Assembly: GCA_040390065.1 (NCBI GenBank)
Contig: JAZJZE010000001.1
Span: 326,718 to 390,717, forward strand
Source of the DNA: a bacterium
Lineage (GTDB): Archaea > Thermoplasmatota > E2 > JACPAO01 > JAHFTW01
Reading direction: 5' to 3'
Length of the DNA stretch: 64,000 nucleotides
Every line of letters begins with the position of its first letter. Within the stretch, counting starts at the first letter, position 1. Of this stretch, positions 16,005-54,691 are shown one piece after another. The notes below the pieces were generated by a model. That model was not told the origin of the DNA, searched no databases, and worked only from the letters and a program-made list of their open reading frames with translations. The translations under genes were made by a program, and so were the position numbers.

Positions 16005-17837
16005 GTGGCTGTCCGCCTGGTGGTTGCATCCCTCGTCCTCTCGGCGGCCGTCGCGGGCGCTGCCCTTCCGGCCCCATCACCCTCGTTTGCCGGGGGGTCG
16101 GCGTACTCGCTGCACATCGTCTGCCCGACGTCGAGTGCCCTGCAGTTCAGCTCCTACTCGCGACCGACCTGTCCCGTCCGCATGGTGGATACGTCCGAGA
16201 TGCTTGGCGACCCCGCCTTGGCCATCGACCCGATGGACGGCAACAACCTGGCCATGGCGATGATCCACGGTGCGGTCGACGGCGGCGGCCCCACGGTGCG
16301 CAGTCGCATCGGCCTGCCCTTTACGACGTTCACGTCCAACGACGCAGGTGCCACGTGGGACGACGCCTTTTACCAGTCGCCGCAGGACCTCGGCAACGCA
16401 TACGGCGAGCATTCCGCTGCGGCCGTCGACCCGTACGGTCACGTCTACGTCGGTTCCACGTACGCGGTGGGCGAAAGGGGCGGCCCGTTCCGCTACACGA
16501 TCGGCGCGCAGAAGTTCGACAGCGTCGAGCAGGTGCGGCAGAAGCAGACGGGTGCCGACGGCTCGTACAACCTCGTCTACGTCGACCCGGTGTTCAAGGG
16601 CGGGAAGATCCGCCAGACGTGGTTCCTGTTCAACGCGGCCACGGACAACATGACCATGGTGTGGTTCGAGGACCGGGGCAACGCGCCGTCCGGGTCGGCC
16701 ACGGTACCCGGCGACGCCCCGCAGGCGGATGCCGATTCCTTGGATGTCCTTCCCGGCTACGCAGCGCGTCGACTTGCGCCGCCGCCCCACTCGTCACCGC
16801 CAGCCAGCAGCGTGGCGCCGCGTGGAACGATCGGCATCGTGTGGACGGGCGTCGGTGACAACGACACGTATCGCCGCCAACCCGTCGAGTGGTCCATCGG
16901 GCCGTGCAGCGGTGCAACGAATCCGGTGCTCTTCGAAGGCTGGCTGTACGTCGGCTGCCAGGCCGACCCGAAGCAGGGGGCGTTCCCATGGCATCCGGAG
17001 ACCCAGCCGGGCACGGTGGAGCTGTTTCGCATGGACCCCGACGGCGGCAAGCCCGTCTACATGGGGGCCAGTCCCATCGTTGGCGGCGCGCCAAAGCTGG
17101 GCGTGCGTTCGGATGGCCGGCTTGCCCTGTTGTCGGCCGGCGTCTCCTCGGCCAACGGCTTGGACCTCACTGGCGTCTTCGGGCACTACTCCGACGGACG
17201 CATCGACTGGACTGGCGTGCACTCGTACTCGGACGGCGTCACTCCTCTGGCCCGCGATGAACGCATCCTGCGCGCCAACATCCAGGACGTCCTGTACCGC
17301 GAGTACTCGGGCGTCGTGCACCTCATCCTGCGCGAGACCATCGAACCGGTGGGCATCGACGCCGTGCAGAAATCCATCGGCCCCAAGATCCGCAAGTGCT
17401 TCGTCGCCTTGGACGAGGATGGCGTCCTGGCCGTGCACCGACTCGACATCGGCAACGTGCTCAACAAGACGGACCCGTTCCTGAACTCGCAGCCCGAGAT
17501 GGCCTACGAGGACTTGAGCGACGACATCGTGCAACTCCCCGCCGCGCCCTTCACGTACAACGGCAAGGACCTTGGCGACACGTACCAGCGGGAATTCTTC
17601 GCCGTCGGCGACTACGGCGAGGCCATCTTCGCGGAGGTCGTGGAAGTGACCGACCTGCGCTTCGTCCCGCCCGTCCCCGTCATCGCGGCCGCCCCTGGCA
17701 TCCCCGCAGCCGCCGCGTCCGGAACGAGCAGCGCGCTCGGAGCCGTCGTCGGCGTCACCACCGGGGCCCTGCTGTTGGCCATGATCGCGGCGGGCCGAAA
17801 AACGGCGGTCGGCAGCATGGCGAAGATGCGCAAGTGA
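16005..17837 (+). CDS. Secreted BNR/sialidase-like beta-propeller protein with C-terminal TM anchor
   Basis: Signal peptide from GTG 16005 (ORF open from 15903); 'DPALAIDP', Asp-box 'TSNDAGATW'; C-terminal TM plus basic tail. Confidence 0.7.
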   Translation: MAVRLVVASLVLSAAVAGAALPAPSPSFAGGSAYSLHIVCPTSSALQFSSYSRPTCPVRMVDTSEMLGDPALAIDPMDGNNLAMAMIHGAVDGGGPTVRSRIGLPFTTFTSNDAGATWDDAFYQSPQDLGNAYGEHSAAAVDPYGHVYVGSTYAVGERGGPFRYTIGAQKFDSVEQVRQKQTGADGSYNLVYVDPVFKGGKIRQTWFLFNAATDNMTMVWFEDRGNAPSGSATVPGDAPQADADSLDVLPGYAARRLAPPPHSSPPASSVAPRGTIGIVWTGVGDNDTYRRQPVEWSIGPCSGATNPVLFEGWLYVGCQADPKQGAFPWHPETQPGTVELFRMDPDGGKPVYMGASPIVGGAPKLGVRSDGRLALLSAGVSSANGLDLTGVFGHYSDGRIDWTGVHSYSDGVTPLARDERILRANIQDVLYREYSGVVHLILRETIEPVGIDAVQKSIGPKIRKCFVALDEDGVLAVHRLDIGNVLNKTDPFLNSQPEMAYEDLSDDIVQLPAAPFTYNGKDLGDTYQREFFAVGDYGEAIFAEVVEVTDLRFVPPVPVIAAAPGIPAAAASGTSSALGAVVGVTTGALLLAMIAAGRKTAVGSMAKMRK

Positions 17838-17995
17838 GGGGCGTCGGAAGCCGCCGTGGCCATGCGGCGGCTGACGGGCCGCGATGCAACGCAAAGACCA
17901 TGCCATCGAGACATGCAATCGGTGGGCGCCGCCGGACACGCCCCGTGGCGCGAACGGTGAAACAACGCAATCCAGCAACGCCGTCGTCCAGGCGG

Positions 17996-18577
17996 CTAGT
18001 ATCCAACAGCCCCGCCGCGGATCCTGGGCCGTGGTCCGACCGTGTCCTCGCGGGGCGGGCCGCGCCATGTTCGCCAATGGAGCGCCACGTCCGTCGGTGT
18101 GAAGGAAAGACTGACTGTCATGACGAGCGGCGTCTCTTGCGTCCGCTCCATCCAAGCGCGAATCCATTTGGCTTCTGCGACGTCCTGTTTCATGTGCATG
18201 AGGGCACGGCCCCGCCAAACCTTCCATTCGATGACGGCCAACGGAAAATGGGTTGGCGTCCAGCTCGTGCCGCCCGACTCCCATGCGGTGCCATACGGTT
18301 CGGGCCAGATGACCAGGTCCTTCGCGATGGCGGCTTTCCGCTTGCCGTTCGTGGCGACGCCGTTGGGGATGCTGACCTCGATTCCGATCTGGCCGACGTC
18401 CTGCAGCGGGCTCCCGGCATGACCAACCTTGGGCAACAGGTGGCGGAAAACGAAGCGATTGACGGCCTCGCGTTCCCGCCCAACCCATCCGTCGCCCGCG
18501 GCATCCGCCACGAATTCCTGGAGTGCCTCTATGATGACAGTCTGCAGGGTGCGGCAGGATTCGGGGTCGCCCGCCAT
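17996..18577 (-). CDS. Putative PD-(D/E)XK superfamily nuclease
   Basis: ATG 18577, 193 aa; 'IGIEV...KDLVIW...LAVIEWK' fits the E..D..ExK catalytic pattern. Confidence 0.55.
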   Translation of the reverse strand: MAGDPESCRTLQTVIIEALQEFVADAAGDGWVGREREAVNRFVFRHLLPKVGHAGSPLQDVGQIGIEVSIPNGVATNGKRKAAIAKDLVIWPEPYGTAWESGGTSWTPTHFPLAVIEWKVWRGRALMHMKQDVAEAKWIRAWMERTQETPLVMTVSLSFTPTDVALHWRTWRGPPREDTVGPRPRIRGGAVGY

Positions 18578-18657
18578 GGGGGAATGCCCGGGCGTGCTGC
18601 CAGCCACGCTCGGCCAAAGGGGAGCTCCACCATGAGGTTGACGCAACCTCGCGAGCC

Positions 18658-19035
18658 CGCAGCGTTCCTCGCCGCTTCGCGGCATCGGCAAACCTGTCCT
18701 GGCACCTACGACGTGCTCGCTTCGCTCGCGGTCTCAGTGCACAGGACAGGATTTGGCGCTGCGGCCGCGCAGGCGCAGCCGCAGCGTTCCTCGCCGCTTC
18801 GCGGCATCGGCAAACCCTGCCCATGCACCTGTCTGTCGCCGGCGGGCGCTCGGCGCCGCCGATGCGACGCGACTTAGTGCACAGGACAGGATTTGGCGCT
18901 GCGGCCGCGCAGGCGCAGCCGCAGCGTTCCTCGCCGCTTCGCGGCATCGGCAAACCCTGCCCATGCACCTGTCTGTCGCCGGCGGGCGCTAGGCGCCGCC
19001 GATGCGACGCGACTTAGTGCACAGGACAGGATTTG
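18658..19035 (-). repeat. tRNA-Leu 3'-end-derived array: two 140-bp units plus one partial unit
   Basis: agtgcacaggacaggatttg at 18736, 18876 and 19016 (the last is the real tRNA); inverted imperfect copies at 18689-18705, 18811-18828 and 18951-18968; the two full units differ at one base. Confidence 0.95.
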
Positions 19036-19099
19036 AACCTGCGAACCACAAAGGAGAAGGCCCTGAACCTTCCGTCGTTGGCCACTTGACTACCTGTGC
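19018..19099 (-). tRNA. tRNA-Leu(CAG)
   Basis: GCACAGG acceptor stem, GAAGG-TTCAGGG-CCTTC anticodon arm, long variable arm, GGTTCAAATCC T arm, A73; CCA not encoded. Confidence 0.95.
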
Positions 19100-19176
19100 A
19101 TTTGGGGAAAAGGGCCAGCCCTTGCGGAGGGCTGCATCCGGCCGACTTCAGGTTGGCACTTGAGGGTTGCGCCCAG

Positions 19177-19294
19177 GCGAACCACAAAGGGGAAGGCCGT
19201 AGCCCTCGGGCCATCAGGTCCGAGGGCGCGACGTGGACGCCGCGAAGCGGCGGCCCGGCCAACCTTCCGTCGTTGGCCACTTGACTACCTGTGC
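19177..19294 (-). pseudogene. Partial tRNA-Leu copy with the anticodon replaced by a 62-nt hairpin insert
   Basis: 19261-19294 is identical to the tRNA 5' part; 19177-19198 matches the 3' anticodon stem and variable arm (21/22); insert at 19199-19260; T loop and 3' acceptor strand absent. Confidence 0.9.
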
Positions 19295-19334
19295 AGACGG
19301 TTGGGAAGAGGGGAGAAGTGGATTCCCTTGAACC

Positions 19335-20129
19335 TTACATCTCGAGTTCGCCGATGGCGTCCGCGAAGCGCTTGAAGCGCTCGCCCAGGAGGTCGAGGGC
19401 CTTCATGAGGGCGTCCTCGGCCTTGAGCGACCCGTCCGTCTCGAAGCGGAAGATGAACTTGCGGTCGTCGTAGGTGATCTTGAGGCCGCCCTGCGTCAGC
19501 TTCTCGGCTTCGTCCGCGCGGTTGATCTCCTCGGGCTGCAGGATGACGAGCTTGCCGCCATCGAGTCCCAGGATCCCCGCAGGCGTGCGGGCGACGGCTT
19601 CCTTGGCCGCCTCGGGCTTGATCTTGCGATTGTCCAACGTCGCCGTCGGGTAGTACTTGTAGCCGACCGCGGAGCAGACTTGCCACTTTGCGTGCTGCGT
19701 GCCGTCGCCGAGGATGGCTTCGGCCTCGAGGATGAGGCGCTGGCCTTCCAGGAGGTCAACGAGCGGGACCTTCGCGTCCACGATGCTGAACTTCTTGTCC
19801 TCGGGCTCGAGGTCGCCGGAGTACACCGTGCACGGGCCCTCCTTGGTGAGGGTGTAGCGCACGAGGTACGTCGGCTTGCCTTCGGCGTCGACTTGGCCCT
19901 TCATGTTGAGCGTGGAGGGGTCGGTCGGCACCGGCAGCAGGCCGATGCGGTGGGCCAGGATCTCGTCGAAGAGCGCGGAGGTGTTGTCGTAGAACGTCAC
20001 CTTGTCGATGGCGAGCTTGGGCACTTCCGACAACAGGACGCGGCGCAGGGCATTGACGAAGTACGGGTGAACGCCGTCGATGACGAGCTTGCACTCGCGG
20101 TCCGTGACGTTGCGAATCTCGATCTTCAT
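19335..20129 (-). CDS. rpoD: DNA-directed RNA polymerase subunit D (Rpo3)
   Basis: 'NALRRVLLSEVPKLAI', 'NTSALFDEILAHRIGLLP', 'HAKW', 'FETDGSL'. Confidence 0.97.
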   Translation of the reverse strand: MKIEIRNVTDRECKLVIDGVHPYFVNALRRVLLSEVPKLAIDKVTFYDNTSALFDEILAHRIGLLPVPTDPSTLNMKGQVDAEGKPTYLVRYTLTKEGPCTVYSGDLEPEDKKFSIVDAKVPLVDLLEGQRLILEAEAILGDGTQHAKWQVCSAVGYKYYPTATLDNRKIKPEAAKEAVARTPAGILGLDGGKLVILQPEEINRADEAEKLTQGGLKITYDDRKFIFRFETDGSLKAEDALMKALDLLGERFKRFADAIGELEM

Positions 20130-20138
20130 GTCAAGCAC

Positions 20139-20528
20139 CTACACGCGCCGGCCGCGGCGGCCACCCTTCTTGCGGCAGCCGTCGTGCGGGATGGGAGTGA
20201 CGTCCTCGATGCGGCCGACCATGATGCCGTTGCGTGCCAGGCCGCGGATGGCGGCTTGGGCGCCGGGGCCGGGGCTGCGGGCCTTGTTGCCGCCGTAGCC
20301 GCGCACGCGGATGTCGACCGTCGTGAAGCCTTTCTCCTTCAGGGCCTCGGCGATGCGCTGGGCGCACGCCATGGCTGCGAAGGGACCGCCCTTGTCCTTG
20401 TCGGACTTGACGGCCATGCCGCCCGAGGCCTTCGCCACCGTCTCGGCGCCCGTGGCGTCGGTGACGGTGATGAGCACGTTGTTGTAGCTCGCGAAGATGT
20501 GCGCGATGCCGCGCTTGTCGGCGCTCAT
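20139..20528 (-). CDS. rps11: 30S ribosomal protein uS11
   Basis: '[21 protein letters not shown]', '[11 protein letters not shown]', 'GGRRGRRV'. Confidence 0.98.
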
Positions 20529-54191: not shown

Positions 54192-54192
54192 G

Positions 54193-54275
54193 CGCCGAGG
54201 GCAGGATTTGAACCTGCAAATCCAGGGGACACTGGTTTTCGAGACCAGCGCAATACCGGGTTATGCGACCTCGGC
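54193..54275 (-). tRNA. tRNA-Ser(CGA)
   Basis: GCCGAGG acceptor stem, CTGGT-CTCGAAA-ACCAG anticodon arm, variable arm, GCAGG-TTCAAAT-CCTGC T arm, G73. Confidence 0.95.
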
Positions 54276-54691
54276 AGGTAAGTCGGCCGACTTGTGGCCG
54301 CTATTTCCAGGTTTCGTGCCGTGCGAGCGCGACGCGCGAGCCATCAGGGGGTCGCGGGGGGCGGTAAGCCCCCCCGCAGGTCCGCGGGGCCGCAGGCCCC
54401 GCTGCCCAAATGATCGACCTGTTTGCAGGTCGAGGGACACTGGTTTTCGAGACCAGCGCAATACCGGGTTATGCGACCTCGGCAGGTAAGTCGGCCGACT
54501 TGTGGCCGCTATTTCCAGGTTTCGTGCCGTGCGAGCGCGACGCGCGAGCCATCAGGGGGTCGCGGGGGGCGGTAAGCCCCCCCGCAGGTCCGCGGGGCCG
54601 CAGGCCCCGCTGCCCAAATGATCGACCTGTTTGCAGGTCGAGGGACACTGGTTTTCGAGACCAGCGCAATACCGGGTCATGCGACCTCGGC
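54276..54691 (-). repeat. Two 208-bp tandem units, each containing the 5' 50 nt of tRNA-Ser(CGA)
   Basis: tRNA fragment at 54434-54483 (identical) and 54642-54691 (1 mismatch); hairpin-rich 158-bp spacers. Confidence 0.95.

Follow-up and report, generated by a model that had tools for sequence, protein, structure and literature searches.

Non-coding hairpin units that copy and complement the 3' ends of tRNA genes in an archaeal lineage: candidate insertion repeats behind tRNA-Leu(CAG)

The tRNA-Leu(CAG) gene of an uncultured archaeon is followed by forward and backward copies of its own 3' end, which raises the question of what placed them there and whether they act on the tRNA. The gene lies in a stretch of 64,000 nt of GenBank assembly GCA_040390065.1 (contig JAZJZE010000001.1, positions 326,718 to 390,717; hereafter the window), from a genome, G000, of 2.68 Mb in 50 contigs with 66.8% G+C and 89% completeness. 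A first-pass annotation, made from the sequence of the window, had noticed alternating sense and antisense tRNA ends and had proposed selection on RNA structure. We lean towards a wider explanation, in which the locus is a short array of lineage-specific, non-coding insertion units that lie 3' of tRNA genes, and occasionally of protein genes, and that carry copies of the 3' end of their target. The genome belongs to the Thermoplasmatota: an acyl-CoA dehydrogenase encoded on a neighbouring contig has its closest relatives (90, 90, 84, and 77% identity) in entries named Thermoplasmata or Thermoplasmatota, one entry bearing the label Halobacteriales, and the gene upstream of the tRNA encodes archaeal RNA polymerase subunit D. 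Because the host is an archaeon, archaeal processing enzymes apply throughout.

The array behind tRNA-Leu(CAG)

The features of the array are all read on the minus strand, which is the tRNA-sense strand, and downstream therefore means lower coordinates. Units have the same order here and elsewhere in the genome, namely a spacer hairpin, an antisense arm, a short hairpin (HP1), a long G+C-rich hairpin (HP2), and a sense arm, after which the original flank resumes:

19017-19099, minus strand: tRNA-Leu(CAG) (ARAGORN; Rfam tRNA at 19018-19099, 48.5 bits, E 1.3e-08)
19017-19035 (the tRNA itself), 18877-18895, and 18737-18755, minus strand: sense copies of the last 19 nt of the tRNA
18951-18968, 18811-18828, and 18689-18705, minus strand: antisense copies of the segment from the T loop to the discriminator
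18877-19016, minus strand: unit 1, 140 nt, adjoining the tRNA (Tandem Repeats Finder, period 140); spacer hairpin 18971-19013, antisense arm 18951-18968, HP1 18929-18950, HP2 18897-18926, sense arm 18877-18895
18737-18876, minus strand: unit 2, 140 nt, 99% identical to unit 1 (repeat searches, RNAfold, and the covariance model R1); spacer hairpin 18831-18873, antisense arm 18811-18828, HP1 18789-18810, HP2 18757-18786, sense arm 18737-18755
18640-18736 (lower boundary approximate), minus strand: unit 3, distal and truncated (38-nt repeat D2 at 18657-18694); loop-motif hairpin 18706-18736, antisense arm 18689-18705, HP1 18667-18688, only the start of HP2

The gene does not encode CCA, and its last 19 nt (19017-19035) are the template for every arm at the locus. 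Two tandem 140-nt units follow, each terminating in an exact copy of these 19 nt, and then the truncated third unit, which has no sense arm. Tandem Repeats Finder reported the array with period 140, 2.1 copies, 99% matches, and a score of 593, and a separate repeat search gave the same families (D1-D3 and I13-I15). Unit 1 folds with the listed helices at -92.2 kcal/mol (RNAfold) and matches R1, described below, at 18877-18969 with 76.5 bits. Because the arm and HP1 of unit 3 resemble those of the single unit at the orthologous tRNA-Leu(CAG) of a relative (G004), unit 3 is probably the oldest, or ancestral, unit of the array; units 1 and 2 are probably a recent duplication.

The mapped copies bear out the alternation of sense and antisense tRNA ends, and also the pairing described in the first-pass annotation. 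Antisense copies 1 and 2 each form 18 pairs with the tRNA end, three of them G-U, with one bulged base, and the advantage claimed for the transcribed strand is seen in their pairing energy of -26.3 kcal/mol on the tRNA-sense strand versus -17.1 kcal/mol on the opposite strand. Antisense copy 3 has indeed diverged otherwise, with 17 pairs, no G-U pair, and two single-base bulges, and its pairing amounts to -25.0 kcal/mol on both strands. Folding both strands, as had been suggested for a check, gave -254.8 kcal/mol for 18650-19035 in the tRNA sense versus -219.3 kcal/mol in the opposite sense. What had been overlooked is that the array belongs to a genome-wide, lineage-restricted family, with members at protein-gene ends and with turnover of unit number and type between species.

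A family of units with gene-specific arms

In G000, 18 of the 52 tRNA genes called by ARAGORN carry one to three units, and each of the 18 is followed, 70-300 nt downstream, by a direct copy of its own 3' end. At tRNAs this copy is 18-27 nt long and in most cases extends from T-loop position 55-57 to the discriminator or the base after it; at protein-gene ends it measures about 26-34 nt. Whole units are 80-160 nt long, non-coding, and hairpin-rich, and the loop of the spacer hairpin is often of the GCGAAGC type. The antisense arm is complementary to the last 18-34 nt of the gene, which at tRNAs extends from about position 56 in the T loop to the discriminator plus one base. The sequences between tRNA-end copies fold to one common layout (RNAfold). 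HP1 and HP2 are both conserved, with conserved junction bases between them, and 13 units could be aligned in a conserved core around GGGTTTGCC and a GAGG-A/T-A-T/C junction, with a consensus fold common to them. The arms differ at each locus, where they match the local gene end, and share only the inner 7 bp.

The covariance model R1, built from the 13-unit core alignment, found 19 matches in G000 (E <= 0.1), of which 15 immediately follow tRNAs on the 3' side and all have the orientation of the tRNA. Of the other four, one comes after a displaced tRNA-Lys end, two are at the ends of protein genes, and one is partial and unexplained. The model misses the subtypes at the tRNAs Arg-CCT, Arg-TCG, Gly-CCC, Thr-CGT, Asp, and Leu-GAG. 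When the outer, gene-specific parts of the arms were compared in register, own pairing (mean -12.3 kcal/mol) was stronger than cross pairing (mean -8.1 kcal/mol); it ranked among the best 5% of cross-pairings in 22 of 52 units and among the best 20% in 34 of 52, with a median percentile of 0.09. A control in which whole unit regions were set against the 13-nt tails of all tRNAs placed the own tail first in 2 of 24 cases and is uninformative, owing to chance pairing of GC-rich sequence. The family is characterized by gene-specific arms around a conserved core, in strict co-orientation with the target gene. A stretch of 27-36 nt with 89-93% identity to part of HP2 and HP1 was also seen far from called tRNAs, at positions 36-71 of the window (minus strand).

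The unit core also stands behind at least three protein genes (G000 contig C9 near 218.2 kb and 35.4 kb, and locus L058 of G005), and a related pair of units lies behind a gene on contig C43 of G000. At these ends the final 26-34 nt of the coding sequence are repeated in the sense arm, and a T together with the first GA of a conserved loop motif forms the TGA stop; at one end the distal copy has no stop and the frame reads on. Twelve orthologous loci were compared for the end of an acyl-CoA dehydrogenase gene, of which four have units (G000, G001, G006 with two, and G011) and eight are empty, the empty sites ending mostly in TAG or TAA. In a by-eye count, made without statistics, the copies at protein-gene ends (L060 at C9:217600-219400, L070-L072, and L058; 7 pairs) differed by 17 synonymous and 2 non-synonymous codons, and the distal copy of G000 is identical to the functional gene end of G001 at 33 of 33 positions. 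Neutral decay of a duplicate would not yield differences that are nearly all synonymous, and, to judge from these codons, one of the two copies probably served over its history as the end of a functioning gene in a different lineage. From this synonymous pattern, therefore, units together with their arm appear to move between lineages, whether by a mechanism of their own or by homologous recombination. A different repeat of ~270 nt lies beside the acyl-CoA dehydrogenase unit (reverse complement of L060, ~1258-1600; G000 C9, ~217.8-218.1 kb), and a 1.8-kb query containing it had 36 matches in G000 and 29 in G004, many of them on that stretch.

The 11-nt loop motif, GAGCG[A/C/G]AGCGA, which in the window lies at 18706-18736 (minus strand), occurs 65 times in G000 versus 20 times in reversed-sequence controls, usually as a hairpin loop with variable stems, and also in several other repeat families. 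Eight of the 65 sites end a frame of at least 100 codons at TGA (T plus the GA of the motif), and with so high a G+C content long frames often arise by chance. Around the 65 sites, arm energies are hardly separated from those of a displaced control (-29.5 versus -23.9 kcal/mol).

Among other genomes of the same taxonomic family (f1), R1 matched 9 of 24 (6 of 12 in the same genus), and it matched none of 16 genomes of other families; at E <= 1e-4 in all 38 genomes of the order, matches were found in 8 of 31 other f1 genomes and in none of 6 genomes of other families. The relatives are samples of incomplete genomes, in which a unit not found differs from a unit absent; among the genomes searched, the family is restricted to one taxonomic family. 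At 15 of 21 loci examined in relatives, ARAGORN calls a tRNA whose own end is copied further downstream; one locus has tRNAs without an exact copy, and five have no called tRNA, three of these having a first copy that runs from the T loop to the 3' end, one lying at a contig start, and one at a protein-gene end. Some tRNAs without units in G000 are followed by them in relatives (Pro-GGG, Arg-TCT, Val-GAC, Ala-CGC, and Pro-CGG). With the gene of RNA polymerase subunit D (RpoD) as the anchor, the orthologous tRNA-Leu(CAG) locus was recovered in ten other genomes of the genus, where it has 0 to 3 units of two types:

G001: no units
G004: 1 unit
G010: 1 unit
G007: 3 units
G012: 3 units
G006: 2 units, one of each type
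G002: at least 1 unit, second type
G005: at least 2 units, second type
G008: 1 unit, second type

In the second type (loci L172, L173, L176, and L180; G008, G002, G006, and G005), which has both antisense and sense arms, the core is a different one and the loop motif is reverse-complemented. In G007 the HP1-HP2 core is nearly identical in all three units, whose spacers are unalignable and whose antisense arms differ. Because the closest cores between loci are mostly found at orthologous tRNAs of different species (80-84% identity), many units would be old and inherited, while their number and type turn over.

Strand-specific structure and a possible host function

Is the structure of the units kept on one strand, and does it serve the tRNA? 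Sixty-four R1 matches (60 distinct) were aligned to the 19 pairs of the model, giving 1088 cells, of which 934 held Watson-Crick pairs, 102 G-U, 12 A-C, and 40 other combinations. Standard pairs filled 95.2% of cells versus 77.0% in shuffles, and 171 cells were changed on both sides versus 37 in shuffles, values that 0 of 500 shuffles reached, although these statistics lean towards structure, the sequences being related to one another and their alignment fitted to the model. When the 3' partner was shifted by one column, pairing fell to 55-57%. Two of the commonest wobble columns are shared consensus, pairing with CAAATCC or CGAATCC. The fold was more stable on the tRNA-sense strand in 46 of 51 units, with a mean difference of -6.3 kcal/mol.

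The arms of 40 non-duplicate units, in 670 aligned columns, contain 72 mismatches: the tRNA-sense strand accommodates 27 of them as wobbles and the opposite strand 3, and the remaining 42 are transversions, which in 35 cases place a purine at a position where a perfect complement would call for a pyrimidine. The first-pass claim that all mismatches are G-U wobbles is therefore local to tRNA-Leu(CAG) and does not extend to the family, in which the non-wobble substitutions that had been named as speaking against it are common, mostly as purine-purine oppositions; the asymmetry between the strands is general. The proposed selection on RNA structure agrees with the preference for the tRNA-sense strand in the pair counts (102 G-U versus 12 A-C cells), but a signature of copying errors could explain the same excess. 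The asymmetry could thus reflect selection on the fold of RNA or of single-stranded DNA, or else the way in which the arms were copied.

As for the partner of the antisense arm, in the minimum-energy fold predicted for tRNA and unit together the arm is paired with the 3' end of the tRNA itself, so that the T arm and the acceptor stem are broken, and in the fold of the whole array each antisense arm pairs with the sense copy preceding it. Gating of tRNA maturation is thermodynamically possible and, on these predicted folds, plausible. Gene-side and distal 18-nt copies were compared for the arms of 60 matches, 6 of which were left out; the copies were identical in 27 and different in another 27, and among the latter the antisense arm paired better with the gene-side copy in 14, better with the distal copy in 5, and equally well in 8. 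The acceptor stem of tRNA-Leu(CAG) has changed on both strands between G000 and G012, and in G012 the antisense arm matches the new sequence and the distal sense copy retains the old type; in the G006 orthologue the antisense arm likewise follows an acceptor-stem change. These sequences lend modest support to the view that pairing, or repeated templating, between the gene end and the antisense arm is maintained.

Such data would also suit a host-serving RNA module kept by selection, either a gating hairpin or an acceptor/T-like helix presented for cutting by tRNase Z or RNase P, with a Y-shaped small RNA or a 3' end as the product; we regard this as possible, though with clearly less than even prospects. 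It would account for the strand-asymmetric conservation of structure with compensatory changes, for the fold onto the tRNA's own end, and for the tracking of the gene-side copy (14 versus 5, with 8 equal). Also in its favor, units are retained at orthologous tRNAs of different species whose spacers have diverged, and the end of the sense arm falls exactly at the discriminator plus one base. On the other side, two thirds of the tRNA genes are unit-free, and the same tRNA has from 0 to 3 units in sister species, with none at tRNA-Leu(CAG) in G001, which speaks against a function that is needed. The closing helix has 17-19 bp and not the 12 bp of an acceptor plus T stack, and the same core stands at a few protein-gene ends. 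A run of four T is present in only 1 of the 18 arrays, a point in favor of the module that is limited by the rarity of such runs throughout G000, where they do not place transcript ends. In an Rfam search of positions 17500-20500 of the window at E <= 1, the tRNA itself was found together with one chance-level match (17.4 bits, threshold 61), the units being unmatched, and the public runs list no RNA data for the organism; both tell against the module. It overlaps with the insertion-element reading, for a domesticated element could act alike.

Origin of the units and their relation to known elements

The explanation that we favor remains that of insertion units behind gene ends. The units would be selfish or domesticated insertion elements whose insertion duplicates the 3' end of the target as a long target-site duplication. 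The antisense copy would be gained or maintained by templated synthesis from the target, through fold-back copying or quasi-palindrome correction, and unequal recombination between the direct copies, or slippage, may then lengthen and shorten the arrays. Units would be co-transcribed as tRNA trailers, where their fold would be constrained, and in the RNA two partners would be open to the antisense arm, the 3' end of the tRNA itself and the sense arm of the unit. Because the antisense arm can pair with either partner, a second sense copy would relieve the tRNA; it could also give RNase Z another acceptor/T-like helix.

Small non-autonomous prokaryotic repeats include MITEs (miniature transposable elements with inverted repeats), repetitive extragenic palindromic (REP) sequences with their composites, the bacterial interspersed mosaic elements (BIMEs) and REPINs (REP doublets forming hairpins), Correia elements, enterobacterial repetitive intergenic consensus (ERIC) sequences, and Rickettsia palindromic elements. 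Like the units, MITE/REP-type repeats are short, non-coding, hairpin-forming, multi-copy, lineage-restricted, gene-adjacent, co-transcribed, and strain-variable; unlike them, the units lie strictly at gene 3' boundaries and are co-oriented with the gene. The arms of a MITE are terminal inverted repeats conserved among copies, whereas unit arms are copies of the flanking gene 3' end, and the short target duplication of a MITE (2-10 bp, of fixed length) contrasts with the variable 18-34 nt of the units. REP sequences and BIMEs are associated with REP-associated tyrosine transposases (RAYTs), and no gene of this Y1/RAYT kind (PF01797) was found in G000, the same family having matched in 6 of 14 control genomes.

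Casposons, which use a Cas1-family integrase, target the 3' ends of tRNA or archaeal elongation factor 2 (aEF-2) genes with a duplication of 14-15 bp. Together with spacer integration into CRISPR arrays, they share with the units the archaeal tRNA or protein-gene 3' ends, the target duplication, and possible tandem arrays of repeat, insert, and repeat. The units differ in their longer and variable duplication, their tiny non-coding insert, and the lack of terminal inverted repeats, and no Cas1 (PF01867) was found in G000. A second resemblance is to tRNA-like signals, such as plant mitochondrial t-elements, mascRNA (MALAT1-associated small cytoplasmic RNA), and the element beside haloarchaeal 5S rRNA, which like the units place near a gene an acceptor/T-like helix that RNase P or RNase Z could use in cutting a transcript. 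These signals have a 12-bp stack and a T loop, in contrast to the continuous helix of 17-19 bp with a three-way-junction cap predicted for the units. The primer-binding site of retroviruses and long terminal repeat (LTR) elements is an 18-nt complement of a tRNA 3' end, and the units likewise contain 18 nt that complement the 3' end of one particular tRNA. In contrast to a primer-binding site, however, the arm at tRNA-Leu(CAG) does not include the complement of CCA (AGG and not TGG precedes it), and in contrast to a tRNA-primed retroelement the arm lies downstream of the tRNA gene itself, in a genome with no reverse transcriptase found (PF00078).

Three structural readings were set aside. An archaeal bulge-helix-bulge stem or intron has two 3-nt bulges around a 4-bp helix, and the predicted arm helix has a single 1-nt bulge; readings of the junction as a K-turn or a hammerhead were dropped on the predicted folds and the Rfam result. 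A full-text literature search, of which titles and the beginnings of abstracts were seen, gave no title describing such units, which is not proof that none is in print. Each known kind that we compared fails at least one tested defining feature. We therefore describe the units as small structured insertion repeats of the MITE/REP kind in a new form, and there is a real chance that they stand further from the known kinds.

A more far-reaching possibility, which we put forward tentatively and consider unlikely on present data, is that the units are a new class of archaeal mobile element in which target recognition lies in the nucleic acid. The last 18-34 nt of the gene would be copied forward and backward, the arms would guide homing to the same gene in other cells, tRNA-processing enzymes would release a Y-shaped RNA or a single-stranded intermediate, and insertion would depend on an enzyme of a kind beyond those searched. 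Guide-like homing of this sort would explain why copies at protein-gene ends differ at synonymous positions only.

The same synonymous pattern would fit a replacement gene end borne by an integrative element. We also considered whether the units are remnants of tyrosine-integrase elements after internal deletion, or miniature passengers with attachment (att) sites mobilised in trans. Such an element, on integrating, supplies a tRNA 3' end of its own and so gives rise to direct repeats that extend from the T loop to the 3' end. Tyrosine-integrase att repeats of the class that runs from the T loop to the 3' end resemble the units in being direct repeats of a tRNA 3' segment that leave the tRNA intact, and G000 has six integrase-like genes (PF00589). 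As a positive control, the genome contains a genuine integrase island of ~12.5 kb in tRNA-Lys(CUU) (C4:105117-117717; integrase gene at C4:106228), with the same direct repeat from the T loop to the tRNA 3' end; the copy of the tRNA 3' end lies at C4:117701, and an R1 unit lies just past that distal repeat. This unit predates the island and is distinct from it. The end of the real island beside the distal repeat has no core like that of the units, and the two-hairpin core and antisense arm, as well as tandem arrays and protein-gene-end members, are foreign to att repeats and their remnants. Units, at 80-160 nt, contain neither an integrase nor any other gene or cargo between the repeats; none of the six integrase genes adjoins one; and to the left of the sense arm, where the 3' strand of HP2 lies, the bases make up no inverted core-site such as would be expected around a crossover. 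We accordingly hold an origin from integrase elements to be improbable. A distant copy of the end of tRNA-Val(GAC), on contig C11, was also seen, 92 kb away and near another integrase-like gene.

Several findings weigh against insertion elements as the explanation. The units have no linked transposase or recombinase in this genome. Searches of G000, which is 89% complete, gave no match to reverse transcriptase, Cas1, or Y1 transposase, and did not extend to DDE families. No recent jump between two different targets was seen, so that the distribution fits old vertical inheritance as well as mobility. Many wobble positions are shared consensus (GGGTTTG opposite CAAATCC or CGAATCC) and not independent events, and the G-U excess could be a signature of copying errors (G opposite T, T opposite G) instead of selection. 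The conserved structure with its compensatory changes could mark a host function and not a selfish element. Finally, none of the public runs checked is listed with RNA data of the organism, and transcription and processing of the units are thus inferred.

The assembly was checked as well. Contigs of four runs, compared with the locus, break at repeats and support no joint that skips a unit; two joints in them stem from other organisms or repeats. An exact 30-nt pattern from the end of the RpoD gene had no match in metagenome contigs, and the RpoD protein located 19 loci there, 4 of them close, of which 3 have no tRNA in their short downstream sequence and 1 ends inside the tRNA at the T arm. 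It is very improbable that the tandem units are a mis-assembly of the metagenome bin around a repeated tRNA end, as might be supposed from the runs of N in unit arrays elsewhere in G000, the breaks inside the array in Logan contigs of the best-matching run, and the related metagenome contigs that end at the tRNA, for the same architecture is found at 18 tRNAs of G000 and in independently assembled genomes of at least nine other species with species-specific sequences, and separate short contigs of run X1 reproduce pieces of the units without differences; only the exact copy number is uncertain. The arrays that runs of N interrupt include those behind tRNA-Leu(TAG) (G000 C1:249835-250250) and behind tRNA-Leu(CAG) of G005 (L180).

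Other repeats were found around tRNA genes, mostly on their 5' side. Upstream of the tRNA-Leu(CAG) gene the window contains the following features:

19177-19295, minus strand: partial copy of tRNA-Leu(CAG) (repeats D4 and D5)
19335-20138, minus strand: gene of archaeal RNA polymerase subunit D (Rpb3-like; Pfam RNA_pol_L and RNA_pol_A_bac)

The partial copy comprises tRNA positions 1-34 (19261-19295) and about 38-59 (19177-19198), with a hairpin-rich insert of 62 nt (19199-19260) exactly in the place of the anticodon, and it has neither the T loop nor the 3' strand. ARAGORN with introns allowed did not call it and made many implausible calls genome-wide. G005 has the same arrangement, with an insert that begins and ends with the same bases as the one in the window. 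This copy is probably a related but separate event. In the same window, tRNA-Ser(CGA) (54192-54275, minus strand) is preceded by a 208-nt tandem duplication (copies at ~54434-54483 and 54679-54691), and in each copy a repeat of the leader and of tRNA nucleotides 1-50 gives way to hairpin-rich sequence. Partial copies of this sort are also found on the 5' side of tRNA-Val(CAC), Pro(TGG), Leu(CAA), Gln(TTG), and Ser(TGA) in G000, tRNA-Ser(TGA) having three with a 120-nt period. At C9:471398-471649 of G000, two copies of tRNA-Tyr(GTA) lie 177 nt apart, and the acceptor strand of the second is missing its first 8 nt; in the spacer are the loop motif and another hairpin element, the latter also found behind tRNA-Leu(GAG) and, inverted, before tRNA-Val(CAC).

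If insertion units behind gene ends are the correct explanation, a third of the tRNA genes in an uncultured archaeal lineage have trailers that imitate and complement their own acceptor/T region. Unit arrays break metagenome assemblies at tRNA genes and can be mistaken for integrase att sites. The units would offer a natural system for learning how precursor tRNAs escape trapping by a perfect competitor helix, and a way to test the recruitment of tRNase Z and RNase P to non-tRNA helices in archaea. Arms that are copied from the target, and not inherited, would lie outside the usual schemes of MITEs, REP sequences, and att sites, and may hint at templated, possibly guide-like, insertion.

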